DNA from: an uncultured Methanobrevibacter sp.
GTDB lineage: Archaea > Methanobacteriota > Methanobacteria > Methanobacteriales > Methanobacteriaceae
Direction of reading: 5' to 3'
Assembly: GCA_964596915.1 (NCBI GenBank)
Contig: CAZQWN010000002.1
Coordinates: forward strand, 1,507-65,506
DNA: 64,000 nucleotides
Shown: piece after piece, positions 611-42,045 of the stretch
Numbering within the stretch: the first letter of the stretch is position 1
Layout: each line of letters begins with the position of its first letter
Notes under the pieces: model-generated
The model's input: only the letters and a program-made list of their open reading frames with translations
Told to the model about the DNA's origin: nothing
Database searches by the model: none
Translations under genes and position numbers: made by a program

Positions 611-1882
611 ATGGCTGCTGAAATGTTACTTGAAATTGAAAATTTAGGTCTTATCAATAAAGCGGATTTGGAGATTGGAAAAATAAATGTTATTGTTGGT
701 AAAAACAGCACAGGTAAATCCACTTCAAGCAAGTTTCTATTTTCACTTTTAACAGCAGCATCTAGTGAAGGAACCCAATTGGCAAACAATAATATTCATT
801 TCAGATTGTTAAATTTTGTAGAGTATTGGAAAGTCAAAACTTCACAGGAAATGGAATCCAAATTCAATCAGGTAAAAAATTCCCTAATCAATAATCCGAT
901 ATCTCCAGAATTATTTGAAGAAGCATATTCTCAAATCACTATAATTTTAGAAGGAGAAGATTTTAAAGATAAGGAATTGTGCATTAATGATTTGAATAGT
1001 TTATATCATATTATTGAACTCAATAATGATGAGAATGTTAGGTATATCACTGTTTTTAATGCGTTGGTGGAATCAGAATATGGAAGTTCATTAAACAGAT
1101 TTCGCAATGCCCATATTAAGTTTCATTGTGATGAATTCAATCAGGATATTAAAATTGGTGATGAAAAAAGTGAAACCCGCATCAGCAAAGATTTTCTAAA
1201 TTACTTTAATTTCCAAAATGTTATTTACATTGATTCTCCTTCAATCTTAGAAAACAATCGTAGAAGTTCACAGTATCATTTACAAATGCTTGAGAGAAAA
1301 CTTAAAAAGATAAAAAGAGCAGATGATGTTTATGGTGATGAATTTTATAAGGATTTAAATGGATTTAAAACCAGTATGGATGAATTAATTGATGGAAAAT
1401 TTGAATATGTTCCATCAGAAGACATATTCATATTTAATAAGGATGGTGAAACCTTTTCCATGCAAAATACTGCTTCAGGACTTAAACAGTTAGCAACTAT
1501 TCAATTATTGCTTGATAATAATGAATTAACAAAAAACAGTTTTCTGATATTGGATGAGCCTGAAATCAATTTGCATCCTGGTTTTCAGGTGGAATTTGCA
1601 AAAATCCTGGTTTTAGCAGCTAGGGACTTGAACATTACGTTATATGTCAATACTCACAGTCCATTTTTTGCAGAAGCAATGGAAGCATATTCAAGATATT
1701 ATGATTTAGTGGAGGATACAAATTTTTACTTGACAGAAAAAGTGGATGGTGTTGAGAAATATAATTACAATTTACTTGAAAATGATGAAATCATTGAGGT
1801 ATATGATAATTTAGGAAACCCCTTTGACATTATCCATAAAGTCAAAGTCCAAGCGGATTTAAAAGACGATTTGGGGGATTAG
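611..1882 (+). CDS. ABC/SMC-like (AAA_15/AAA_21-type) ATPase with no fused nuclease domain
   Basis: Walker A is GKNSTGKST near the N-terminus. After a long helical insert come a signature-like ASGLKQ, Walker B/D-loop FLILDEPEINLHP and H-loop NTHSP. A GGAG RBS lies upstream. Confidence 0.8.
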   Translation: MAAEMLLEIENLGLINKADLEIGKINVIVGKNSTGKSTSSKFLFSLLTAASSEGTQLANNNIHFRLLNFVEYWKVKTSQEMESKFNQVKNSLINNPISPELFEEAYSQITIILEGEDFKDKELCINDLNSLYHIIELNNDENVRYITVFNALVESEYGSSLNRFRNAHIKFHCDEFNQDIKIGDEKSETRISKDFLNYFNFQNVIYIDSPSILENNRRSSQYHLQMLERKLKKIKRADDVYGDEFYKDLNGFKTSMDELIDGKFEYVPSEDIFIFNKDGETFSMQNTASGLKQLATIQLLLDNNELTKNSFLILDEPEINLHPGFQVEFAKILVLAARDLNITLYVNTHSPFFAEAMEAYSRYYDLVEDTNFYLTEKVDGVEKYNYNLLENDEIIEVYDNLGNPFDIIHKVKVQADLKDDLGD

Positions 1883-1883
1883 C

Positions 1884-2618
1884 ATGACATTTAATAATAA
1901 GGATTTTGAAGATTTGCTGAATTTCTTTAAAAATCAAGATAATTTTCCAGATTATGCCCGTAAGTCATTTGATAAATTCAGTGAAGTGTCTAAATCAGAA
2001 AATGAATACAAATATCCATTAATTGATGATGATGGTTGCATTTTTGATTTAGACAATATGTGCTGGAATAGTCATCTGAAGAAAAATGGGCATGTTAAAG
2101 GAAATCGTCCATCATCTGTCGATGCATTACATTTTGAAAATGGTAGGATGTATCTGATTGAATTTAAAGGAACTTTTAATACCACTTTAGATTTAGAAGA
2201 AGTTATGGATAAATGCAGTGAAAAATTGGATGATGCTGATTTAATAGATGCTCTTAATGGTGTTAAGAACAGGTATGATGATGAGATATTATGTAATTTG
2301 AAAATTAAGCCTTCTGATTCATTGTTTTTGACTTTACCTAAAATTTATAAGTATTATTGCGAAAAAATGTGTTTGGAGTATAATAAAGAAGAATTTATCT
2401 CATGGCTTTTAAAAGTTCCAAAAAGGCTGTATGTTGTATTTTTAAATGATGCTTATGAAAGCGAAGGAAATGAGAGTAAAAGTTATAAATATCTAAGAAT
2501 GGACAATAAGCTACAAAAAAGATACGCTCCATTTAAGGAACTTGCAAATATGGAAAATTCAATTCTCACTCAGAATGAATTTAAAGAAGGATTCATGAAA
2601 GAATTCTTTAATAATTAA
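1884..2618 (+). CDS. Hypothetical protein with a PD-(D/E)xK nuclease-like motif, translationally coupled to the ATPase
   Basis: The ATG lies 1 nt after the ATPase stop (TAG-C-ATG), and GGGGGA lies 7 nt upstream. The motif SVDALHFENGRMYLIEFKG reads as D-x12-E-x-K flanked by hydrophobic strand-like segments. I recognise no other family. Confidence 0.55.
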   Translation: MTFNNKDFEDLLNFFKNQDNFPDYARKSFDKFSEVSKSENEYKYPLIDDDGCIFDLDNMCWNSHLKKNGHVKGNRPSSVDALHFENGRMYLIEFKGTFNTTLDLEEVMDKCSEKLDDADLIDALNGVKNRYDDEILCNLKIKPSDSLFLTLPKIYKYYCEKMCLEYNKEEFISWLLKVPKRLYVVFLNDAYESEGNESKSYKYLRMDNKLQKRYAPFKELANMENSILTQNEFKEGFMKEFFNN

Positions 2619-2909
2619 ATATATTGAAAGTTGTTAATTGCGTTTTGTTTAATTCAGGATATAATTGGGATATTATATCATTTAAATTTTTGACACTAGA
2701 TAAACACTTAAATCATCTGAAATACATTTCTATTCGTTCTAGATTTGACCTGTAACATTTCATTATTGATTTCATCAATTGTTATATAATTCATGTGTCT
2801 ATTCTCCGTTGATTTTAATCTAAAAATCCTTTTAGGATTATCTTATCTGTTTTGTTGTGAAACTTCCATTTATTTTTGAATAAATCCGTTTGCATCACCA
2901 TCTCTTAAA

Positions 2910-3310
2910 TTGGGTGCGGGGGACATCAACACTCTGCCATCATCTCTGACAATTGCTTTTAAAACCACTATTGAGGGTATAGGTTCCGGTGCGTTGTGTT
3001 ATGTGCTTGGAAAAATTAGAAAACGGTGGTGTGATAGGGCTGTGACTGATTTGGATGCCTTATCTGATGCGGTGCTGGTTATTGCTGTGGGTTTTTTGGT
3101 TTTTGTTATTATTTCCTGGAATATACAGGTGATGATTGATTCAAACGAGAACATTCAGAAGAGATGCAAAAAAAGACTGCTGAGATTGAGCGGGGCATTC
3201 AGTTGGATGGGGTGCAGGATACAAGCAACTGTTCGCCTCAGGGTTATGCTGAGATGGGCAAGGTTTATAAGGATCCGTCGACGGGAAAACTGATAATGGT
3301 TGAGGGTTGA
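2910..3310 (+). pseudogene. C-terminal fragment of a MotA/TolQ/ExbB-like proton-channel gene; copy 2 of the flanking direct repeat, frameshifted
   Basis: SLTIAFKTTIEGIGSGALCYVLGKIRKRW..DLD resembles the conserved last TM region of MotA/ExbB. After the A7 run near 3168 the plausible reading moves to another frame (EEMQKKTAEIERGIQLDGVQDTSNCSPQGYAEMGKVYKDPSTGKLIMVEG*, stop 3308-3310). There is no N-terminal half. Confidence 0.5.
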
Positions 3311-3443
3311 TGCACAGCCCTTCTTTATTTTATTTTTATGATTAATTATTTTCATAGTTTAATGAACAACTTATTTTTTAATCAGTCTTTTGAGTAATTA
3401 TTTTAATGCTATTTTTAAATTGTAGCTTTTTTCATAAGTTAAT

Positions 3444-3495
3444 GTAGCAGTCCAAGAATCATTTTTACAAAATGATAAAATCATTATGTAAGAGA
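3444..3495 (+). mobile_element. Solo copy of an approximately 50-nt IS-end-like sequence
   Basis: CCAAGAATCATTTTTACAAAAT..TAAAA.CATTATGTAA.AGA recurs in reverse orientation at about 9687-9741. There it lies immediately 3' of a TnpB remnant. Confidence 0.45.
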
Positions 3496-4149
3496 ATATA
3501 CGTCAAATATGTCCATGTTAAGATTGTTGTCTTTTAGGATTTTTAATAATTTTTTATATTTTATGTTTTGGTTTTGACCCAAGTGTATTTCTCAGGTTAT
3601 TTAGTTTTTCTTTATCGTCTTCACATTCGATTATTTCGTTTAAGTTTTCAAGTCCTCATTTAAGAAGGAATTCATCTGTTTAAATTGGAATTTATATTCA
3701 ATCATAAAATTATTTATATCTATATGGCATAAATATAATTGTTAATAAAATTAACAAAACGGAAAGTAGTCCTAGGATAGCTTGTTAATCCTTATGCTAC
3801 TAAAAGTATAACCGCCAAGAATTTTTACCAAATCTACAATAATTTGGTAAAGCACTATATGCAAATATGCAATGAATGTGTGCATGTGATTTTGAATGGC
3901 TACAACAATTTGGATAAATGAAGCGGTTAAGCAAATGTTGAAATTAAAGAGTGTTGAACTGGTTGGATTTGGAAAACAGACATTTTTTAAAAGGTCTTAA
4001 AGATGACGCACCATCCAATATAATGAGCATCAGTGGCATTGAAGCAATCTGATAAACATGATGAGATAAGAATTTAGAAAAGTTGGATGGGGTATTGCAC
4101 TCTGATGGCCAGCCAACAGTGAATTAACGAAACACAGTTACGGATAAGC

Positions 4150-4965
4150 ATGATATTTCTAGACAGCACATATTTAATCGGATTAATTTTAATAGGCATC
4201 TGTGCAGGTTTTGCATCTGGACTTTTAGGTGTTGGAGGAGGATTTTTAATCGTACCTCTTCAGTACTTTCTGCTTAAATATGTGGGTGTAAATCCTGATC
4301 TTGCAATGCTGATTTCATTGGGTACCAGTCTTGCAATCATTATTCCAACATCAATGAGCGGTGCTTACAGACACACAAGAACCATGGACAATATCCTGAA
4401 GCCCGGAATTCAACTGGGGGTCTTCGGTATAATCGGCGGCGCAGTTGGAGGATTTGTCGCATCAGGGCTCCCGTCAAGAGTATTAGAGATAATATTCGGT
4501 TGTTTGCTGCTGTTTGTAGTTGTTAAAAACATTATTGATATAAATAAAGAACGTGATGAAGCTAAAATTCCTTTCAATTTGCTAACAAGTGGAATCATCG
4601 GTCTTTTTGTAGGTTTTTCATCAGGACTTTTGGGTATCGGCGGGGGAGTATTTTTAATAGCTATATTAACCTCACTTCTAGGTTTTTCTTTAATTGAAGC
4701 TATCGGAACCTCTTCAGTATTTATCTGCCTCACAGCAGTTGGAGGATTTTTATCATATATCGTAACCGGCTGGGGAGTAAGTACATTTCCGTATTCTATT
4801 GGATATGTAAGCATTATAAATTTCTTGATGATTTCCTGTTTTTCAGTACCTTTAGCATCCATAGGTGCTAAATTCGCACATAGAATTCCTCAAAAAAAGT
4901 TAAAAATAATATTTTCAGTAGTGGTATTTTATATAGCATTAAAAATGCTCGGAATTTTACCATAG
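4150..4965 (+). CDS. TSUP (TauE/SafE) family anion/sulfite exporter-like membrane protein
   Basis: Polytopic membrane protein with two Gly-rich repeats (GLLGVGGGFLIVP and GLLGIGGGVFLIA) typical of TauE/SafE. Confidence 0.8.
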   Translation: MIFLDSTYLIGLILIGICAGFASGLLGVGGGFLIVPLQYFLLKYVGVNPDLAMLISLGTSLAIIIPTSMSGAYRHTRTMDNILKPGIQLGVFGIIGGAVGGFVASGLPSRVLEIIFGCLLLFVVVKNIIDINKERDEAKIPFNLLTSGIIGLFVGFSSGLLGIGGGVFLIAILTSLLGFSLIEAIGTSSVFICLTAVGGFLSYIVTGWGVSTFPYSIGYVSIINFLMISCFSVPLASIGAKFAHRIPQKKLKIIFSVVVFYIALKMLGILP

Positions 4966-5351: not shown

Positions 5352-6644
5352 ATGAGGAGGAAAGAAATAATTCTTTTTATGACAGTTGGAACAGGGGTTA
5401 ATGGTAGTTCTGGTGAAGATGGTTTTGGAATACTTGCTCAAAAGTTATATTCTACAATTACCAAGATTTATCCTCATCATATAGTATTTTTTGCCTCTGA
5501 AAAGTCCAAACACACTATTGATTATATTGAAGCGTTGTTCAAAAAGGATAATGATGAATTTATTTTAGATGAAGATTATCAGATTGTTCCACTTGAAGCT
5601 ATTGATGATTTCAATGCATGCTTTGAAGTTTTTGAGTCTAAAATATGGGATTTCGGATACTCTGAAAACAAGAATGATTATCAGATAATAATGGATTATA
5701 CCTCTGGGACCAAAACCATGTCTGCAGCAATGGCCTGCTGTGGAATGTTTTATAGGACTGATTTGATATCAATTGGGGGGGATAGGTCAACCGGTGAGGT
5801 ATCTGCTGGAACTGAACTTATAAACTATCAGAATCTATATAAGATTTATGATAGGTTCGTTCTTATCAGATCAAGACAAAATTTTAATTCCTATCGTTTC
5901 AGAGAGTGCATTGAGATATTAAAATATATTGTTGATTTAAGTATTCATAAGGACTCATTTTTAGCTCTTTGTGAGGGATATTATTCCTGGGACATTATGG
6001 AGTTTGAAGAGGCATATAATTATTTAAGACAAGTCAATGCTAACCATATGGAGATTGTGGAAATCAAATCAATTCTAAAGAAAAATCTCAATGCTTTAGG
6101 AATTATTGTAAATTCAAAATCTGAAAACTTGAAGAACTGTTATATTCTTGCAAGTCTGATTAATAATTCTATAAGAAGGGCTGAGGAATATAAATATGAT
6201 GATGCGATTGCACGTTTGTACCGTTCATTTGAACTGATAGCTCAAATCAGATTGAATAAATACAATATTGAAAGTTCAGATGTCGATGTTTCAGTTTTAA
6301 AAGAGAATGATGTTTCAGATGTATTCATTGAAGATTTGGAAAAAACAAGAGAAGATGGAAAAATCAGAATTGGTCTTATTAAGGATTTCTTACTTTTAAA
6401 TGAACTGAATGATGAATTGGGTAAGATATATCTTGAAAATGAAAACAAAATCAAAAACATGACTCAAAAGAGAAACCGTTCAATATTGGCTCACGGTTTG
6501 GATTCACAATCAAAACAGGATTTTGATGATTTTTTAGAGGTTGTTCTTTCATTAGCCCGTAAATTGGATAAAGACATGAACAAATTCCTATATGAAACCA
6601 AATTCGCAAAATTTGATTTAAAATTAAAAATCGATCAGGTTTAA
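5352..6644 (+). CDS. CARF-HEPN protein (Csx1/Csm6-like; resembles the Cas02710/TIGR02710 group), predicted cyclic-oligoadenylate-sensing RNase
   Basis: The N-terminal Rossmann-like strand is ILFMTVGTG. The CARF-type loop is MDYTSGTKTMSAAMA. The C-terminal HEPN R-x4-6-H motif is KRNRSILAHG. GGAGGT lies upstream of the ATG. Confidence 0.7.
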   Translation: MRRKEIILFMTVGTGVNGSSGEDGFGILAQKLYSTITKIYPHHIVFFASEKSKHTIDYIEALFKKDNDEFILDEDYQIVPLEAIDDFNACFEVFESKIWDFGYSENKNDYQIIMDYTSGTKTMSAAMACCGMFYRTDLISIGGDRSTGEVSAGTELINYQNLYKIYDRFVLIRSRQNFNSYRFRECIEILKYIVDLSIHKDSFLALCEGYYSWDIMEFEEAYNYLRQVNANHMEIVEIKSILKKNLNALGIIVNSKSENLKNCYILASLINNSIRRAEEYKYDDAIARLYRSFELIAQIRLNKYNIESSDVDVSVLKENDVSDVFIEDLEKTREDGKIRIGLIKDFLLLNELNDELGKIYLENENKIKNMTQKRNRSILAHGLDSQSKQDFDDFLEVVLSLARKLDKDMNKFLYETKFAKFDLKLKIDQV

Positions 6645-6692: not shown

Positions 6693-9479
6693 TTAGAATG
6701 CAATACTTGCATAATAACCTTTAAGATTATAATTGTAATTGTTCCAATTAACCACATTTCCAAATGAATTTCTGGAACTTGTCGGATCGCCTACAATCCA
6801 AGTATCACCAATCAATACTTGGGTCCAAACGTGTCCATATGTACTTCCACTTAATGTGAAATAGCAAGTACCGTGAACATATCTTGCTGCAAGGCCTGCA
6901 GTTCTATACATGGCAACTAATAAATGAGCTTGGTCAACACAGTTACCTGTTTTTGAATTTAAAGTGCCGACAGCACCATATTTTGTGTCGTAATAGAAAC
7001 TGTAAGATATGTAATCACGCACATAATTGTATATTGCAGTAGCTTTAGCTTTGTCTGTTGTTAATCCTGATGTAATTGAATTAACAATTGATTTAATTTT
7101 ACTATTGCCCACTTGACAATTTGTGGAAGACTTTAAGTATGCCGCTAAGTTTGTTATTGTGTTCTTAGTGTTTAAAGAACTTGAACTGCTTGATTCATAA
7201 GTTTTGATTGATACATAGTTTGGCATGATTGAATTATCATCATAAAATGCCACTATACGCGCTGTAGCATAGACTAAACCATTGTATCCTATTGTTCCAA
7301 CTTTTGAACTCACAGAATTCGGCATAGTTCCTTTTGATTTACAGGTATTTACAATACTTTTTGCAACTGCAAGGTAATCATATAAATTACCTAAGTTAGA
7401 TGCAGATTGTGGATTAGCGGGACTATTAACTTGTTGAACTTCAATATCTTTCTTATTATTGTTTTTTAAGTTAATAATTGCTTGTGATGCTAAATATACG
7501 TATTCTGCTGTTGAGTAAGTTACAGATCCAATTTGAACAGTTTTCGGCAATCCCTCATTGCTTTCAATGTATTTTTTAACGTATTGGGATGCTGCAATAA
7601 TTTCTTTGAGTGTTACTTTATCGACAACAGTTATTTTTGAAGAACCTGATGTTTTTCCATCAGTGTATGTTACTGTATATTCACCTTTAGTTAATCCGGA
7701 TAGTGTAAGTTTTGCAATACCATTTGCGTTTGTTTGTACAGATTCTTCTTTGCCATTTAATGTAAATTTAATGGTAGTAGCTATAGGATTTTCTTGACCA
7801 TCAAGTACTTGTACTTGGAATGTGGATGATGTACTTGATGGTACGGCCACATCGCTTGCGATAAATTTGGTACCATTAACTAGGACATGTTTTGTTACTT
7901 TTGAAGAAGTGTAGTAAGTTGTATCAACTTTAACATCAATAGGATAATATCCAATTTGTTCATTTACTGCCAGTTTAGCAACTCCGTTTTCATCAGTTTT
8001 TACTTTAGAAGATTTTTCGTTTAAAGTAAATTGAACTTCTATGCCATTAAGATTGGATCCTGTCTTGTTTTTCACCGTTACTTGGTAAACTGATCCATCG
8101 TTATGTTCCATCACTAAATCGTTTGCAGTAATATTCACTTTTTGTTTTGAAATCACAAGGCTACCTGTTCCTTTATTGTAATCCTTCAAGCCTGCTGTTG
8201 AATATGTGTATTTAACAGTGTATGTATTAGGCTTTAAATCACCTATTGCAAGTTTTGCTACACCCTTGCTGTCAGTAGTAACAGAGGTTGTTTTACTATT
8301 TAATGTAAATTTAATAGTTTTATTTGCTAAAGCTTTTCCGGCGGAGTTAGTGGCGGTTACGGAAAATGAAGAACCGTCATTATACTGCATTTTTAATGTA
8401 CTTGCCTTTAAGGTTGTAGTTGACTCTTTAACGTACAATTTTTTAGATCCTGAAACTGCATTGTATTTGCTGTTTCCATTGTATTTATAAGTAATAGTGT
8501 AAGTACCCTTCGAAAGTGAGGAGATAGTTATTTTAGCTTCTCCGTTCGCATTGGTCGAAGCAGTTACTTGTTTTTTATTATATGTAAATTGAATCTTGGC
8601 ATTTTTCAAAGGTTCATTTTTGCTGTTTTTCAATACAACTGTGTATGTACTTTTGGTATTGGGAAGTACATATTTGTTTGATGCAGTAATTTTACTGCTA
8701 GCTTTTTTAATGGTAATTGTTTTTGTAACTGTTTCTTTTGAGTAGGGATTATATAACTTTATACTATATGTTCCCGGCAAAAGAGTTGAAATGGATATTT
8801 GAGCATATCCTTTTGAATCAGTTTTAATGGTGTAAGTCTTACCATTAAGTGTGATTTTAACATTACTTTCTTGTAAATTACCATTATCCCTTAAAAACTT
8901 CGCTGAATAGTTTTTATCAGCACCATATCTTGTGACCATATCTGATGCTGAAATTGAAGAAATAACTTTAATCTTTTTGGAAACTGAACTTTTTATGTAT
9001 TGTGAATCTCCATTATATGTGGCAGTTATAGTGTAAGTTCCTTTGCTAAAAGCAGAGGCGGTAAAGTGAGCAATACCCTGTTCGGAAGTGGTTGCTTTGT
9101 ATGTTTTACCGTTTATTTTGTAAGAAACGCTTTGATTTGCTAAAATGTTTCCATCAGTATCTTTCAATACAATTTTAAACACTGTTGCTGTTTTTGAGTA
9201 ACGTGCATTGTAGGTTTCTATTTTAGTGTTTACCTTAGTAGTGTTATTTGAAACATCATTTCCTGAAGATTCGCTAGTGTTGGTACTATCGCTCTGTAAA
9301 GAGGTAGTTTCCAAATCTGATTTTAAAGTAGGTTCTAAATTTGATGCTTCTGAATTATCTAAAGATAATTTTCCATCATCAACTATTAAATCTGAAGTTA
9401 CTGTACTTGTAACATTACTTAATTCAGTTGCGCTAACAGTTCCCAGTAATATGAAGAACATAAAAACAACTGAAATCAA
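6693..9479 (-). CDS. Adhesin-like surface protein: signal peptide, about 9 Ig-like (Big) repeats, pseudomurein-binding repeats and a C-terminal transglutaminase-like cysteine protease domain
   Basis: Repeated modules of the form KxTLNGKTYTxKTDSKGxAxxxxSxLxxGTYT. PMBR-like segments include TVQIGSVTYSTAEYVYLASQAI and VGTIGYNGLVYATARIVAFY. The Cys-His-Asp triad context is GNCVDQAHLL, YGHVWTQVL and VGDPT. Confidence 0.8.
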   Translation of the reverse strand: MISVVFMFFILLGTVSATELSNVTSTVTSDLIVDDGKLSLDNSEASNLEPTLKSDLETTSLQSDSTNTSESSGNDVSNNTTKVNTKIETYNARYSKTATVFKIVLKDTDGNILANQSVSYKINGKTYKATTSEQGIAHFTASAFSKGTYTITATYNGDSQYIKSSVSKKIKVISSISASDMVTRYGADKNYSAKFLRDNGNLQESNVKITLNGKTYTIKTDSKGYAQISISTLLPGTYSIKLYNPYSKETVTKTITIKKASSKITASNKYVLPNTKSTYTVVLKNSKNEPLKNAKIQFTYNKKQVTASTNANGEAKITISSLSKGTYTITYKYNGNSKYNAVSGSKKLYVKESTTTLKASTLKMQYNDGSSFSVTATNSAGKALANKTIKFTLNSKTTSVTTDSKGVAKLAIGDLKPNTYTVKYTYSTAGLKDYNKGTGSLVISKQKVNITANDLVMEHNDGSVYQVTVKNKTGSNLNGIEVQFTLNEKSSKVKTDENGVAKLAVNEQIGYYPIDVKVDTTYYTSSKVTKHVLVNGTKFIASDVAVPSSTSSTFQVQVLDGQENPIATTIKFTLNGKEESVQTNANGIAKLTLSGLTKGEYTVTYTDGKTSGSSKITVVDKVTLKEIIAASQYVKKYIESNEGLPKTVQIGSVTYSTAEYVYLASQAIINLKNNNKKDIEVQQVNSPANPQSASNLGNLYDYLAVAKSIVNTCKSKGTMPNSVSSKVGTIGYNGLVYATARIVAFYDDNSIMPNYVSIKTYESSSSSSLNTKNTITNLAAYLKSSTNCQVGNSKIKSIVNSITSGLTTDKAKATAIYNYVRDYISYSFYYDTKYGAVGTLNSKTGNCVDQAHLLVAMYRTAGLAARYVHGTCYFTLSGSTYGHVWTQVLIGDTWIVGDPTSSRNSFGNVVNWNNYNYNLKGYYASIAF

Positions 9480-9686
9480 TAATGTTGTTTTTTTATTCGA
9501 AATATTTACACCTTCTTGGTTCTCATTATGATATTTTTTTGAGAAATATACAAAAATTTATAATATTTCATAATGAGTGGATAAATGTTTGTTTATTTTT
9601 TTATATAAATGTTAGTATAACTTCAATGCTTAAAATAATACATAAAACAGAGTATTTGGTGATATTGTATAAGTCAAAATTCATTG

Positions 9687-10102
9687 TCTTTTACATAATG
9701 TTTTTACTATTTTGTAAAAATGATTCTTGGGCTGTTAATACTGGTGTGTTAAGATTTTACCAAGCTAACTCCCGTTGACTTACGGTTTGTGATTTACTTA
9801 CAAATAAATCATTTTCATGTTATTTTGCGTCATTGTAGTATGTTTTTTTTCTGCGTTTATGTCTCTGTCTTATGTTGTGTGGCATTTTGCAGGTCCATTG
9901 GTGTATGTTCAGTGTTAGTTTAATGTTTTTTGTATCTGCAGACATTGCATAGTTTGCTTGACGGATTAAATCTGTCTATTTGTATGAATTTTTTACTATA
10001 TCCTTCCGATTTGTATTTTATTGTTTTTTTCAACATGTCTTTGTAATATTTTTTTAGTGTCTTTTTATAGTTTTTACTCAGGTATTTTTTCCTTGACATC
10101 AT
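9687..10102 (-). mobile_element. tnpB: Decayed IS200/IS605-family element: TnpB C-terminal remnant plus 3' end
   Basis: ORF 9920-10102 ends ..YKSEGYSKKFIQIDRFNPSSKLCNVC, matching the TnpB (vdr.fpSSk.C..CG) motif. Downstream frames give ..W-T-C-K.. and DRDINA with stops. A terminal hairpin CCGT-AAGTCAA-CGGG follows, then the 50-nt shared end. Confidence 0.6.
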
Positions 10103-10395
10103 TTTTGATATTAATTATGGAAAAATACGAACATTTAAACCAAAAAATGCCTTCAATTAAAATCTGTATATCAAAACAACAAAAAACATTTTTTTTATAG
10201 TAAATAATCAGCAATATATAAAACCGGTGAAATCATTTGAAAAGTAATGCCAAAAATATAAAGGTACAAACATCAAGTAAGATAATATAATATATTTTCT
10301 TCATTATCATCTTTGAGTTGTTTTCTTGGTGAATATTTTTGATACTGCATTTTCAAAGTCATATCATTAAAAAGATAGTTTCACACAACGGAGGT

Positions 10396-11247
10396 TCAAT
10401 CTAAGTATACTCCCATGCCAATTGCGTTTACCTGATAATGGTCTCCTCCTAGCCCGATTAAACCGTATTGGATATCCAAATCAACAACACAGTTGCCTCC
10501 GGCAGCTTTAATGCATTGAGTTAATTTAATTAAACAGTCATCTTTTGCTTGCTTTAATTGATTTAATGTTATTATTTCAGTTTTATTTTGATTTGAATGT
10601 ACTAATCGTTTATCTTTTTCAATGATTACTGTTGCGTGGAATTGTCCTAAATTAGTGTGGTTTCTATCTAAAATGTCTGTGCTTGTAATGAAATAAAAGT
10701 CAAGATTGTTTATTCTTATGTTGCTTGCTTCCTCGTCAAATTTTGTAACTGTCTCGATTTCTATTTCATATGGTTTTTTTAAGATATGTTTATAGTAAAT
10801 ATATTCTAAGTTACTATTAAAGTAACTAGTAACTCTTTTAAATATTCCTAAAAGGTAAGATAAGGTTCCCAATCCTCCGACCAGTAATATGTAGTTTATT
10901 AATGTAGGAAATGCTGCTTGTAAAATAATCGCTATCGATCCTATGGTTATGATGTTAACTCCCAATGTGGGATTCTTTAAAATAAAGCTATAAAAAGTAG
11001 TGTCTATGAAAAGGATAAAAGCACTGATTGCACCTATGTCCTCTCCGATTATTCTGTTTGCTAATATTGTTTCAGCATATCCTGCGGCAAGTGGTGCAAA
11101 TATCAGGCCTAAGTTCCAACCAAAAATATCAATATGGAAATATAGGAAAAATCCGTATACTCCCAGGCCCACTGCGGTTCCAAAAGCAATGCATAAAATA
11201 GCTTCTCTTATGTAAGTTATTTTTACTTCTCGTTCTCTAAAATTCAT
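10396..11247 (-). CDS. Membrane protein with a C-terminal YbjQ/UPF0145-like domain
   Basis: About 5 TM helices are followed by a soluble domain ending GGNCVVDLDIQYGLIGLGGDHYQVNAIGMGV. That ending parallels the adjacent YbjQ-type protein. Confidence 0.5.
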   Translation of the reverse strand: MNFREREVKITYIREAILCIAFGTAVGLGVYGFFLYFHIDIFGWNLGLIFAPLAAGYAETILANRIIGEDIGAISAFILFIDTTFYSFILKNPTLGVNIITIGSIAIILQAAFPTLINYILLVGGLGTLSYLLGIFKRVTSYFNSNLEYIYYKHILKKPYEIEIETVTKFDEEASNIRINNLDFYFITSTDILDRNHTNLGQFHATVIIEKDKRLVHSNQNKTEIITLNQLKQAKDDCLIKLTQCIKAAGGNCVVDLDIQYGLIGLGGDHYQVNAIGMGVYLD

Positions 11248-11250
11248 TGT

Positions 11251-11574
11251 TTATTCACTTTTAACGGCAGTTCCATAAGCAGTTACAAGAATTGTATTTC
11301 CCATGGTGCCGCCAAGATTGTCGTAAGAAATTTTAAGTCCGATTATTGCATTGGCGCCCAGAACTTCGGCTTTTTCTTCCATACTTTCTAGTGCAATTTC
11401 TCTTGCCTTTTGAATTTCTTCCTCATATTTGGTTGTTCTTCCACCTACAACATCGCGAACTCCAGAAAATAAGTCTTTATAGATGTTGGATCCGATTAAG
11501 GATTCACCGGTTACCAAACCTTTATATTCTATTATTTTTTTATTTTCCAGGGTATTTGCGGAAGTCAGTATCAT
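11251..11574 (-). CDS. YbjQ family (UPF0145) protein
   Basis: The 107-aa protein carries [68 protein letters not shown], the classic UPF0145 pattern. Confidence 0.8.
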
Positions 11575-11580
11575 ATTATC

Positions 11581-11772
11581 TTACTTCATAAAAGTCAATA
11601 TTGCCCAAATAATTAAAAAGATTGCAATTACAACATATAATATTATTTGTGATCGTTTTCTTTGGTTTAATCTAGCGTCCCAAACTTTTTGACAATCTGG
11701 TGAGCATACAAGTTCATTTAATGGAATTGGGGTTCCACATATTGGACAATGTTTATGAGGTTCTACTGCCAT
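11581..11772 (-). CDS. Small zinc-ribbon protein with a C-terminal TM helix (DUF2116-like)
   Basis: Cys pairs HCPICGTPIP..VCSPDC are followed by a hydrophobic tail. Confidence 0.55.
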   Translation of the reverse strand: MAVEPHKHCPICGTPIPLNELVCSPDCQKVWDARLNQRKRSQIILYVVIAIFLIIWAILTFMK

Positions 11773-11784
11773 TTTTTCATCTCC

Positions 11785-12573
11785 TTATATTTTAAAAAAT
11801 TCTTTAGTATTTTTAGTAACTTGAACTGCAAGTTCTTCACTATCAAGTCCCATGCATAATGCAATTGTTTCGAGGATGTGCGGTAAATATTTTGGTTCGT
11901 TTCTATTTTTTTTAGGCTTTTTATCAAAGTTTTTTGGTATTAAAAAAGGCGCATCTGTTTCAATCATTAATTTTTCAGGAGGAATCACACTTACAGCTTC
12001 TTGTAAGTCTCTTCCTCTTTTCATGTCACAAATCCATCCGGTTACGCCAATATAACATCCTAAATCAACATAATTTTGGGCTTCTTGTTTTGTTCCAGTA
12101 AAACAGTGAACTACTGATTTTTCAATAACACTATCATGTCTTTCCAGAATGGTGAATAAATCTTCATGCGCTTCTCGTTCATGTAAAAATAACGGTAATT
12201 CGGTTCTTTCTGCAACTTCAATTTGTGCTTCAAACCATTTTCTTTGCAAATCTTGTGGGGAAAAATTTCTATTATAATCAAGTCCGCATTCACCAATAGC
12301 CACTACACAATCGCTTTTGGCTATTTTTTCCAATTCAAACATGCTGTGTCCGTTGCATGTTTTTGCATCATGGGGATGAACTCCGGATGTTGAAAATAAT
12401 GTTCCTGGATATTTTGATGCATATTCTGCTGCTAGCTGGCTTGAATTCACATTGGTTCCTGTGATAATAAACTGTGTAACGCCGGCTTTTTTGGCCTCTT
12501 CAATAATTTCAACTCTGTCTTTTTTAAAAGACGAATGCATCAGGTTCAATCCAATATCAATTAGGTTATCCAC
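11785..12573 (-). CDS. tatD: TatD family metal-dependent hydrolase/DNase
   Basis: IDIGLNLMH, GVHPHD, AIGECGLDY, LFLHEREA, VHCFTG and ETDAPF are the canonical TatD motifs. Confidence 0.85.
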   Translation of the reverse strand: MDNLIDIGLNLMHSSFKKDRVEIIEEAKKAGVTQFIITGTNVNSSQLAAEYASKYPGTLFSTSGVHPHDAKTCNGHSMFELEKIAKSDCVVAIGECGLDYNRNFSPQDLQRKWFEAQIEVAERTELPLFLHEREAHEDLFTILERHDSVIEKSVVHCFTGTKQEAQNYVDLGCYIGVTGWICDMKRGRDLQEAVSVIPPEKLMIETDAPFLIPKNFDKKPKKNRNEPKYLPHILETIALCMGLDSEELAVQVTKNTKEFFKI

Positions 12574-39832: not shown

Positions 39833-41671
39833 CTAGAATAATCCGCTTTCCCCCAATTTTTCTTCAAAGAATTTTGAATTTTTATCTGCTTTTTCCTTAA
39901 TGACAATTGCAACGATAACTGTTATTATTCCAATTGCTAAAAGAATAACCAATGCAGGCCAATAATTTGACCATACAACACCTAATTGTGCTTCCCGTAT
40001 CAGTTTAATTGCATAAGTCATTGGCAGGCAGGGATATAACACTTGGAAAAATTTGTGCATAATTTCGATTGGATATATTCCTCCGGTTCCAGATATTTGG
40101 AATACAAGAAGAATCACGGTTATTCCTTGTCCAACGGTTCCAATTGCAGAAATTATTGAATATATTAATATCATAAACACTGCCGATACTAAAATTGTTG
40201 AAAATATAAACAGGGGATAATTATCCACATAAACTCCTAACAGAAAAATTCCAATGATAGTTACACAAGCTTGCAGTATGCTCATAACTACATATAATAA
40301 TAGTTTTCCGGAATACATTTCAAATGGGGAATATTTGGTTCCTGCACTTGATTTCGGTTCAATCATTGAACAAGTGATTAATGCACCGACCCACATGGAT
40401 AATACAAGATAGAATGGTGCTACGTTAGACCCGTAGTCTGGGACAGGATATAATTCATGTCTGTCCAGTTTAATTGGTGAGAAGAAATAATCTCCAAGGA
40501 GAGTTTCATTAATACCTGTAATTGCTGAGAGCTGGTCTGCAGTTGCTCCAAGTGAACCTGATGCGGTGAATAATGCCTGTGCAGCTGCATTTCCAAGTAA
40601 TTCTGCACCTGCTGCAAGGCTTAATGATCCTTCTGCCAATTGCACAGAACCGTCTGCAAGGGTACTGGCACCTCCAGCAACTTCGCTTGATCCTTCAGCT
40701 AATTGAACTGAACCGTTTGCCAGCGAACTGGCTCCCTGAGCAACTTGGCTTGATCCTTCAGCTACTTTTCCACTACCCTTCGCAAGTTCTGAACTGCTTT
40801 CAACATATGATTTCACCGGTCCGTCTGGAATTAATGATGAGTCTACTGCGGAGTCCAGTTCTTCTGAACCTTTCTGTACTTGGCTTGCGCCCTGTTGCAC
40901 GGCGCTGGAACCTTTCTGTACTTGGCTTGCACCTTGCTGGACTGTACTTTTACCCTGCTGTACTTGGCTTGCCCCATCTTTTACTTGACTTGCCCCATCT
41001 TGAACCTGACTGACACCAGAGGAGACTTGTCCTGCACCGGAGGATACTTGCGCAGCGCCTGATTGAAGTTGGCTTCCTCCACTAGCTAATTGTCCGGCAC
41101 CAGATGCAAGACCTTCCTGTAATTCTCCAAGTTTTCCGTATGCTGCAAGGTTAATGATTTGAATAATTTTTGCATTAAGTGTTGTATAAACAGTGTTTGC
41201 ACCGGAATCTGTCAATTTTGTAGCCACTGGATTGGATTTAATATTTACTATATATTCTAATTCTGCTTGTTTCGGATTATCTCCTGCAATCGAAACAACA
41301 TTTTCCGTCAGATTTTTGGGTATCACTATACCCGCATAATACTTTCCACTATCCACTCCGTCCCGTAGTTCATCTTCTGTGACGAATGTCCAATTGAATT
41401 TATCGTTCTTTTTTAAATCTTTAACAAGTTCATTTCCAACATTTATGTTTGTTCCTTGAAAAGAATAACCATTATCAAGATTTGCAATTGCAAATCCCAC
41501 ATTTCCTGTGTTTCCATAAGGATCCCAACATGCCTGTATGTTTATAAGAGCATAAAGGGAAGGGAGTATTATTATTGCAATCAAAACAATGGTAACGATA
41601 GGATTTGAAAATGCTGCTTTGAAATCGTTTTTCATTATCTCAACGATATTTCCTACATCTTTACGTCCCAT
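39833..41671 (-). CDS. YhgE/Pip-domain membrane protein (ABC-2-type permease-like) with a long Gly/Ser/Gln/Val-rich repeat insert
   Basis: The likely start is MGRKDVGNIVEIMKNDFK. An N-terminal TM is followed by the YhgE/Pip pattern (YAGIVIPKNLT) and about 175 aa of GASQVQxG-type repeats. A C-terminal multi-TM domain follows. Confidence 0.75.
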   Translation of the reverse strand: MGRKDVGNIVEIMKNDFKAAFSNPIVTIVLIAIIILPSLYALINIQACWDPYGNTGNVGFAIANLDNGYSFQGTNINVGNELVKDLKKNDKFNWTFVTEDELRDGVDSGKYYAGIVIPKNLTENVVSIAGDNPKQAELEYIVNIKSNPVATKLTDSGANTVYTTLNAKIIQIINLAAYGKLGELQEGLASGAGQLASGGSQLQSGAAQVSSGAGQVSSGVSQVQDGASQVKDGASQVQQGKSTVQQGASQVQKGSSAVQQGASQVQKGSEELDSAVDSSLIPDGPVKSYVESSSELAKGSGKVAEGSSQVAQGASSLANGSVQLAEGSSEVAGGASTLADGSVQLAEGSLSLAAGAELLGNAAAQALFTASGSLGATADQLSAITGINETLLGDYFFSPIKLDRHELYPVPDYGSNVAPFYLVLSMWVGALITCSMIEPKSSAGTKYSPFEMYSGKLLLYVVMSILQACVTIIGIFLLGVYVDNYPLFIFSTILVSAVFMILIYSIISAIGTVGQGITVILLVFQISGTGGIYPIEIMHKFFQVLYPCLPMTYAIKLIREAQLGVVWSNYWPALVILLAIGIITVIVAIVIKEKADKNSKFFEEKLGESGLF

Positions 41672-42045
41672 ATTCTCACTTTCAGTATTAATTTTTAAAT
41701 TAAGATAAAATTTAAAGAGATTCATAAATTGAAATACCAAAACTTTTAGGGTGAAATCAATCCATAAATTGTAACTTTAATATTAATTAATCTTTAATTT
41801 ATAATATATGTAAAAAATTTTATAAAAAAGTTTCTATATTACTGCTTTGATGAAAAAATATTGCTCTAAAATTAAGTAACTGCTAAATGGGCATTTTTTT
41901 TTAAAATTGAACGCCGTGAATAATATCTAATGAATGAAAATATTTTATTTGCATAACAGTTTTTAGATTTTTTTTATTAAAATAATATTTATACTTGGAA
42001 GTAAAATATTATATATGTATAAATGATTATTTTGAGGAAAATATA

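Follow-up and report, generated by a model that had tools for sequence, protein, structure and literature searches.

Near the left end of a 64,000-nucleotide (nt) stretch of DNA from an uncultured Methanobrevibacter sp. (contig CAZQWN010000002.1, positions 1,507 to 65,506; hereafter the window), two genes follow one another on the forward strand. The first, ORF1, encodes an ABC-type ATPase and the second, ORF2, a smaller protein of an uncharacterised family; together they form the module discussed here. ORF1 ends with TAG at 1880–1882 and ORF2 starts with ATG at 1884, which leaves a gap of 1 nt, and a GGGGGA element lies inside the 3′ end of ORF1. An earlier note on this DNA had given the same positions for both genes, the gap and the GGGGGA element, and all of them were found there. 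ORF2 has 52 homologues and 132 cluster representatives, hence ORF1 and ORF2 are both real genes. The features of the module, in window coordinates and with protein positions in amino acids (aa), are:

552–559, + strand: candidate archaeal TATA box TTTATATA, ~50 nt 5′ of the ORF1 start
599–602, + strand: GGAG, candidate ribosome-binding site for ORF1
611–1882, + strand: ORF1, 423 aa, ABC-type (AAA_15/AAA_21) ATPase, proposed sensor/regulator subunit
698–724, + strand: ORF1 Walker A motif GKNSTGKST, aa 30–38
725–1471, + strand: ORF1 insert between Walker A and the ABC signature, ~250 aa (aa 39–287)
1472–1489, + strand: ORF1 ABC signature-like motif ASGLKQ, aa 288–293
1541–1579, + strand: ORF1 Walker B motif and D-loop FLILDEPEINLHP, aa 311–323
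1649–1663, + strand: ORF1 H-loop NTHSP, aa 347–351
1873–1878, + strand: GGGGGA, Shine-Dalgarno-like element for ORF2 within the ORF1 3′ end, 5 nt before the ORF2 ATG
1884–2618, + strand: ORF2, 244 aa, uncharacterised partner family, proposed metal-dependent nuclease effector
2052–2054, + strand: ORF2 D57, invariant acidic residue at the start of helix 56–63
2115–2171, + strand: ORF2 core SVDALHFENGRMYLIEFKG, aa 78–96, which holds D80, E93 and K95
2307–2339, + strand: ORF2 K142, acidic residue 145 and P152 in the long helix 118–161, (nearly) invariant as established for the archaeal branch only

The two elements upstream of ORF1, TTTATATA and GGAG, were found by inspection of the sequence and would, on that basis, suit a promoter and a ribosome-binding site of archaeal type.

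Judged by its motifs and profile matches, ORF1 is an ABC ATPase of the OLD/PtuA/AriA class with a complete motif set, a split layout and no fused nuclease. It scores above the Pfam cut-offs for AAA_15 (56.9 bits, cut-off 32.1; E 3.7e-15) and AAA_21 (48.4 bits, cut-off 27; E 1.8e-12), and Pfam detects no second domain in it, Toprim and HNH included. These results agree with the earlier description of a split ABC layout with four motifs, an insert of about 250 aa and no fused Toprim or HNH domain. Among the PADLOC models, which carry no curated cut-off, the best match of ORF1 is HEC-02A (1.6e-29), followed by PD-T4-4_A (7.4e-24). Further matches are AriA (3.2e-18), PDC-M47A, NsnB, PtuA (9.3e-14) and GajA (5.6e-9), the GajA model covering the ATPase part of ORF1 only. 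The HEC-02A match amounts to 101 bits over two stretches, the better one at aa 245–366, and the PD-T4-4_A match to 82.7 bits, likewise over two stretches. Since all PADLOC matches are partial, at ~100 bits or less, ORF1 appears to be a relative of these ATPases and a member of none of the families. Moreover, weak PDB sequence matches connect ORF1 with the OLD nuclease, AriA (8ux9) and retron PtuA (9vh1, 9kjx), and along its full length it matches phrog_14430 (6e-32), a family of unknown function.

ORF2 has no match in Pfam, NCBIfam or PADLOC. A word-indexed search returned the 52 homologues, with E values down to 1e-42 and the named ones all from Methanobrevibacter, and an exhaustive profile search, run over 1.84 billion representatives, returned the 132 cluster representatives. 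In an alignment of 61 sequences that extends to ~20% identity, residues D80, E93, F94, K95, K142 and P152 are invariant, and D57 and the acidic residue at position 145 (D in ORF2, E in most family members) are nearly so. When archaeal and bacterial sequences are merged in an alignment of 40, only four columns are invariant, namely D57, D80, E93 and K95. The bacterial and phage branch of the ORF2 family corresponds to phrog_25533, also of unknown function, which is matched by 18 of 40 family members (best 6.4e-30). The most divergent archaeal homologue, P0051 (41% identity, 279 aa), has a C-terminal extension and lies at a contig edge (L001–L004, L021), where it adjoins an operon for a UvrD-like helicase, a TPR protein, a DprA-like protein and a metallophosphatase.

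The ATPase gene accompanies the partner gene wherever the upstream sequence is available. In all 22 related loci of this kind, and in L028, an ATPase gene is located directly upstream on the same strand, and the junctions range from an overlap of 11–14 nt to a gap of ~10 nt, apart from one gene call that places the two ~100 nt apart. On Methanobrevibacter contigs with upstream sequence, the ORF2 homologue always comes directly after an AAA_15/AAA_21 ATPase, and the same pairing is found in a Methanobrevibacter partner subfamily of ~270 aa with 25–30% identity. ORF1 and ORF2 are translationally coupled, as their tight junction had suggested from the start. The ATPases of the ~270-aa subfamily come in variants, one being fused to an N-terminal Mrr_N domain (534 aa; L013, 5386–6990) and another shortened to 269 aa (L014, 6189–6998); the latter may be without its N-terminal half.

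The pairing extends to bacteria. A tblastn search with ORF1 against plasmids gave five matches, and the best three, which were inspected, come from Acinetobacter, Bacillus cereus and a mobilizable Klebsiella plasmid of 5.9 kilobases (kb). Each of these three ATPase genes is followed, by overlap or after a 2-nt gap, by a gene for a "hypothetical protein" of 212–222 aa, and these partners share the ORF2 motif, e.g., FSVDTIVYCSVKDCLYLIEFKEG. A profile built from 18 bacterial partner proteins aligns with the archaeal profile at an hhalign probability of 97.2% (E 4.2e-11). In addition, the similarity of the ATPases to ORF1 declines in parallel with the divergence of their partners. Pairing and gene order have thus been kept across Methanobrevibacter, Enterobacterales and Bacillota, and the earlier label of an archaeal cassette is too narrow, given the homologous pairs of Enterobacterales, Acinetobacter, Bacillus, Planococcus and a gut mobile element.

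The module is sporadic and is found in changing contexts that are rich in defence and mobile-element genes. The neighbours at one Methanobrevibacter locus are a PIN_12 protein and a KAP NTPase, and at another Mrr_cat; three further loci carry a Type I restriction-modification system with a DUF4011 helicase, MazG with an SLFN-like helicase, and UvrD-PDDEXK, VRR_NUC and Type I restriction-modification genes, respectively. Some contexts are metabolic, with phosphonate or polysaccharide genes, and the copy in M. intestini has a context other than that of the window copy. In Planococcus, the module shares a defence island with genes for an SLFN-like helicase and an AAA_13 ATPase. The defence setting that the earlier note had proposed is supported, in that the pair has an accessory, patchy distribution among defence genes; the opposite outcome that the note had envisaged, an invariant syntenic core in all relatives, was not seen, as the contexts differ between loci. 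Collectively, the module displays the general marks of a defence system: a conserved operon, a patchy horizontal distribution and co-location with defence and mobile-element genes, the co-location being judged qualitatively.

Distribution and context also bear on whether the pair could be a housekeeping module of the core genome, i.e., an SMC/Rad50-like ATPase and a nuclease that act in DNA repair or recombination as Rad50-Mre11 or SbcCD do. In favour of this are the long inserts of the ABC ATPases and weak Pfam signals for SMC_N and AAA_23 (in ORF1 and in the gene tables of the Morganella and Planococcus loci). However, the SMC_N score of ORF1, 9.8 bits, is far below the cut-off of 40, the context varies by locus, and there are copies on plasmids and next to a prophage. 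Moreover, a scan of 185,579 GTDB species genomes with peptide patterns from alignment A1 confirmed just three loci, all in Methanobrevibacter; the scan is pattern-based and finds close relatives only. A housekeeping repair role is therefore rejected on distribution and context, and we consider it highly improbable.

A second alternative comes from the bacterial copies and their carriers. The pair might be a maintenance or addiction module of mobile elements, similar to a toxin-antitoxin system, or an exclusion module; ORF2 would then be a toxic nuclease restrained by the ATPase, and the main role of the pair would be to stabilise or protect the plasmid, prophage or island that carries it and not to defend the host from viruses. 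The copy on the 5.9-kb Klebsiella plasmid, which has a RelE/ParE module and the replication gene as neighbours, fits this scenario, and so do the other plasmid copies, the Morganella copy at the edge of a prophage (it adjoins the prophage integrase) and the copy in a human-gut mobile element that was deposited as a phage and has ParB-like and relaxase-like genes. Both genes also have PHROG families. In Methanobrevibacter, however, the pairs are chromosomal and lie in islands that also hold genes for restriction-modification, helicases and nucleases, and those related pairs of ATPase and nuclease for which tests exist act in phage defence. We regard an addiction or exclusion role as quite unlikely; the two roles are, moreover, mutually compatible, since abortive-infection systems often resemble toxin-antitoxin systems.

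What type of protein is ORF2? The AlphaFold model of ORF2 (predicted local distance difference test score [pLDDT] 81, predicted template modelling score [pTM] 0.78) places D80 immediately before strand 81–85, and E93 and K95 inside the long strand 88–98. In this model, the ExK strand is followed by a helix, the long helical insertion 118–177 and a hydrophobic strand at 180–187. A second, independent model, that of P0299, a compact homologue from bacteria, and based on the 40-sequence cross-domain alignment (pLDDT 83, pTM 0.83), has a cleaner order than that of ORF2: strand-strand(D)-strand(ExK)-helix-strand-helix-strand. The placement of D..ExK is equivalent in the two models, and the order of secondary-structure elements in both is compatible with an alpha-beta-beta-beta-alpha-beta core. 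ORF2 hence has, according to the models, what is expected of a PD-(D/E)xK active site, an acidic residue together with D and (D/E)xK on adjacent beta-strands, and in both sequence and predicted structure D57, D80, E93 and K95 are positioned as in PD-(D/E)xK enzymes.

A comparison with the motifs of two PD-(D/E)xK families leads in the same direction. The Sso Hjc motif PDIIALKNGVIILIEMK and the pXO1 NERD motif IDHIVIAETGVFVVETK have a D-x12-E-x-K spacing identical to that of ORF2 VDALHFENGRMYLIEFK, and in each a hydrophobic run precedes ExK. ORF2 differs from both Hjc and NERD in having an N-terminal region of ~50 aa, in the long helical insertion at 118–177 that, in the archaeal branch, separates the ExK strand from the core strand after it, and in that its similarity to either, in sequence or fold, does not reach statistical significance. 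Taken together, ORF2 looks like a PD-(D/E)xK nuclease on account of the invariant motif, the 12-residue spacing, the predicted beta-hairpin and, by analogy, the kind of partner that related ATPases have. Of the "textbook restriction-endonuclease-fold core" claimed for ORF2 by the earlier note, the motif has proved invariant and the order of secondary structure fits, whereas the fold itself found no statistical support in fold and profile searches.

ATPases of the ORF1 class are known from several two-gene defence systems. In PARIS, which is often carried by phages or satellites, AriA is a stand-alone ABC ATPase of the class of ORF1 and is followed by a small effector gene. ORF2 and its relatives have no DUF4435/Toprim match in Pfam or PADLOC, the hallmark of AriB, and in ORF2 the motif, carried by a predicted beta-hairpin, reads D..ExK and not E..DxD. 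Septu (PtuA with the HNH protein PtuB) and PtuAB of retron Ec78 resemble the module in ATPase class and two-gene architecture, but the HNH domain that defines PtuB was not found in ORF2 or its relatives in Pfam or PADLOC. As to Gabija, ORF1, with 423 aa, is without the Toprim domain of GajA, and ORF2 is no helicase of the GajB type. The earlier statement that the partner is neither an HNH protein nor a DUF4435/Toprim protein nor a UvrD helicase therefore stands, as Pfam and PADLOC give no such match.

The nearest described relatives are HEC-02 and PD-T4-4. Hma-embedded candidate 02 (HEC-02) consists of the ABC ATPase HEC-02A and the NERD PD-(D/E)xK protein HEC-02B, protects against phage and requires both genes (10.1101/2024.01.29.577857). 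Like HEC-02, the module couples, in an operon of two genes, a stand-alone ABC ATPase with a small partner that has a (D/E)xK motif. In contrast to HEC-02, no match to NERD (PF08378) or to another PADLOC partner model was found in ORF2, in the three bacterial partners or, among the families listed, in the 61 archaeal relatives; the hhalign comparison with NERD is without power. ORF2 also does not have the N-terminal transmembrane and GE-helix region of the pXO1-type NERD proteins used. PD-T4-4 is classed with systems of a PD-(D/E)XK nuclease and a P-loop NTPase that generally act as protein complexes (10.1101/2025.07.10.664194), and in E. coli it is located on an element that resembles an integrative and conjugative element (PMC9519451). 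It shares with the module the two-gene layout, and its ATPase model is the second-best match of ORF1. It differs in that ORF2, the 61 relatives and the bacterial partners match no non-ATPase PADLOC model, the comparison being made with PADLOC models. Both HEC-02 and PD-T4-4 are validated pairs of an ATPase and a PD-(D/E)xK protein, and their ATPases are the best matches of ORF1; the pairing is therefore not the new effector swap that it had been taken for. What is known is the ATPase chassis and the architecture of ATPase plus PD-(D/E)xK protein, while the partner family appears to be undescribed; a literature search found no paper that names it. As an aside on nomenclature, model PDLC04146 of PADLOC-DB v2.0.0, labelled "HEC-02B", matches the ATPase ORF1 (2.3e-15) and bacterial ATPases, whereas the HEC paper uses HEC-02B for the NERD partner; the labels A and B may therefore not mean the same in PADLOC as in the paper.

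On this background, we favour the view that ORF1 and ORF2 constitute a two-gene operon for an ATPase-controlled effector module, and that it probably belongs to the antiviral or anti-mobile-element class of ABC ATPase plus nuclease to which PARIS, Septu, HEC-02 and PD-T4-4 belong. The module is a credible candidate for defence and probably has that role. In PARIS, an ATPase scaffold frees a nuclease upon a trigger, which offers a mechanistic template for ORF1 and ORF2. Oligomers of ORF1 would bind ORF2 and hold it inactive. The variable insert of ORF1 (~250 aa), as a trigger-sensing or oligomerisation region, would sense an infection cue, a role assigned by analogy with HEC ABC ATPases, which have been described with variable inserts (10.1101/2024.01.29.577857). 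A change in the nucleotide state of ORF1 would then release or activate ORF2, and ORF2 would act as a Mg2+-dependent nuclease of PD-(D/E)xK type that cuts nucleic acid of the invader or the host. The outcome might be direct restriction or abortive infection.

We put forward a wider version of this model more tentatively, at a little short of an even chance. According to it, ORF1, ORF2 and their bacterial and phage counterparts (phrog_14430 and phrog_25533) would represent a cross-domain antivirus system with a new effector family that is absent from the defence catalogues and active in human-gut methanogens and in enterobacterial plasmids and prophages. The effector would be either a highly divergent PD-(D/E)xK protein or a fold with no solved relative. 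If validated, the pair would bring an uncatalogued effector family to the defence systems gated by ABC ATPases, a large group, and would be a rare case of one defence module common to gut methanogens, Bacillota and the plasmids and prophages of enterobacteria. Genetic manipulation of Methanobrevibacter is difficult, whereas the bacterial homologues, e.g., those of Klebsiella and Morganella, are directly testable in E. coli. No new principle would follow, given HEC-02 and PD-T4-4 and the many other candidates of this sort.

Several observations weigh against a defence module with a nuclease effector. The nuclease fold of ORF2 is not confirmed by the model comparisons, as neither profile nor fold searches give it statistical support. 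Foldseek returned no neighbour at E <= 0.001, in PDB for both models and in BFVD for the ORF2 model. The best non-significant matches of P0299 are RAD51 paralogues, UspA and TrkA, which are not nucleases; those of ORF2 include a few PD-(D/E)xK-type nucleases, e.g., R.BspD6I (E 0.11, TM 0.2). The ORF2 relatives match no PD-(D/E)xK family of Pfam even at permissive thresholds (61 relatives, E <= 10, top 25 of 70 listed families), and the 61 archaeal relatives have no recurrent match to a nuclease family in Pfam, PADLOC or PHROG. The match to phrog_843, "Holliday junction resolvase" (E 0.002), is restricted to the window protein, one of 61 members, and is not used as evidence. With profiles of Hjc/Hje resolvases and NERD proteins built from real sequences (five in the case of NERD), the hhalign comparison with the ORF2 family is not significant for either, at a probability <1% (0.14% for NERD). 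As to ORF1, the partial HEC-02A and PD-T4-4_A scores suggest kinship with those families and not membership. Moreover, the co-location with defence genes was judged by eye on ~10 contexts and is thus qualitative, not statistical, the genes around the module in the window are of mixed character (a TPR protein, a TauE exporter and a single CARF-HEPN gene that stands alone), and no experimental report on the ORF1/ORF2 family was found in the literature.

These data raise the possibility that ORF2 is not a nuclease and instead is an adaptor, a sensor or another enzyme, with a fold for which no close relative has been solved. The D/D/ExK residues would in that case serve in ligand or metal binding or form an interface to the ATPase, and the output of the module would be other than nucleic-acid cleavage. 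That two confident models (pLDDT 81 and 83, see above) have no significant structural neighbour agrees with such a role, as do the Rossmann-like and RecA-like alpha/beta proteins among the best non-significant matches of P0299 and the missing profile link to any nuclease family: significant similarity to a known PD-(D/E)xK family was found neither in Pfam, PADLOC, NCBIfam and PDB nor with hhalign, and the three bacterial partners have no match to a partner family in Pfam or PADLOC. However, the negative profile result carries little force. Hjc and NERD fail to detect each other in the same comparison, which therefore is without power at the superfamily level, and in the top local hhalign alignments the D..ExK residues of the ORF2 family line up with the catalytic ones of Hjc and of NERD. 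The predicted layout is the classical one for PD-(D/E)xK proteins, with Asp before a strand, hhhhExK (h, hydrophobic) in the next strand of the hairpin and 12 residues between them, then a helix and a hydrophobic strand; Hjc and NERD have the same spacing, and the nearest ATPases pair with PD-(D/E)xK nucleases. We therefore consider a non-nuclease ORF2 fairly unlikely. It would partly overlap with the favoured model, as an ATPase-gated effector would still hold. Sequence-profile matches to PDB entries obtained with alignments A1, A2 and A6 (portal protein, CGI121 and atlastin) were dismissed as spurious.

Beyond the module, three features of the window belong to its surroundings:

119–342, + strand: left copy of a direct repeat of ~225 nt; context, not part of the module
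3086–3311, + strand: right copy of the same repeat, ~225 nt, with an intact 48-aa ORF at 3164–3310, MQKKTAEIERGIQLDGVQDTSNCSPQGYAEMGKVYKDPSTGKLIMVEG
5352–6644: CARF-HEPN gene, Csm6/Csx1-type (TIGR02710, Csm6 HEPN and 6H domains; PADLOC CARF_HEPN 4.7e-138)

The direct repeats that the earlier note had reported on either side of the module are real. The repeat is present just twice in the window, with identities of 94% and 85% and a guanine-plus-cytosine content of ~42% versus 23–30% in the background, and the 48-aa ORF is broken in the left copy by a 2-nt deletion. It was not found in the related loci or in metagenomes of the Joint Genome Institute (JGI), and short-read contigs with an identical TauE gene are all ~2 kb long and all end within it. 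The repeat belongs to the locus or genome of the window and not to the cassette. It does not appear to be a structured RNA or a known element, with no Rfam match and no signal for an RNA fold (z -1.1 and 0.0). The insertion-sequence debris once suspected nearby was not confirmed: neither a transposase-like ORF nor a terminal inverted repeat was seen in 2619–4150, a stretch that was not subjected to a profile search.

The CARF-HEPN gene, likewise announced beforehand, is real as well. The 64-kb window holds no CRISPR-like repeat array, and by its domains the gene product may be an orphan RNase that responds to cyclic oligoadenylates.

Some additional observations concern other loci and the far part of the window. 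In L017, the gene directly downstream of the module encodes a UvrD-like helicase of 1363 aa (7890–11980); in L018 (7890–11981) this helicase is split into ORFs of 279 aa and 964 aa, through a frameshift or an assembly difference. At the Planococcus locus (L027, 4101–6037, − strand), a second, unrelated pair, made up of a 395-aa AAA_15 ATPase and a protein of 249 aa, stands back-to-back with the module, and its smaller protein is unmatched by the profiles of the ORF2 family. In the window itself, tandem repeats of 21, 42 and 63 nt at 40625–41012 lie inside a 635-aa ORF (39833–41740, − strand), which implies a repetitive protein segment.

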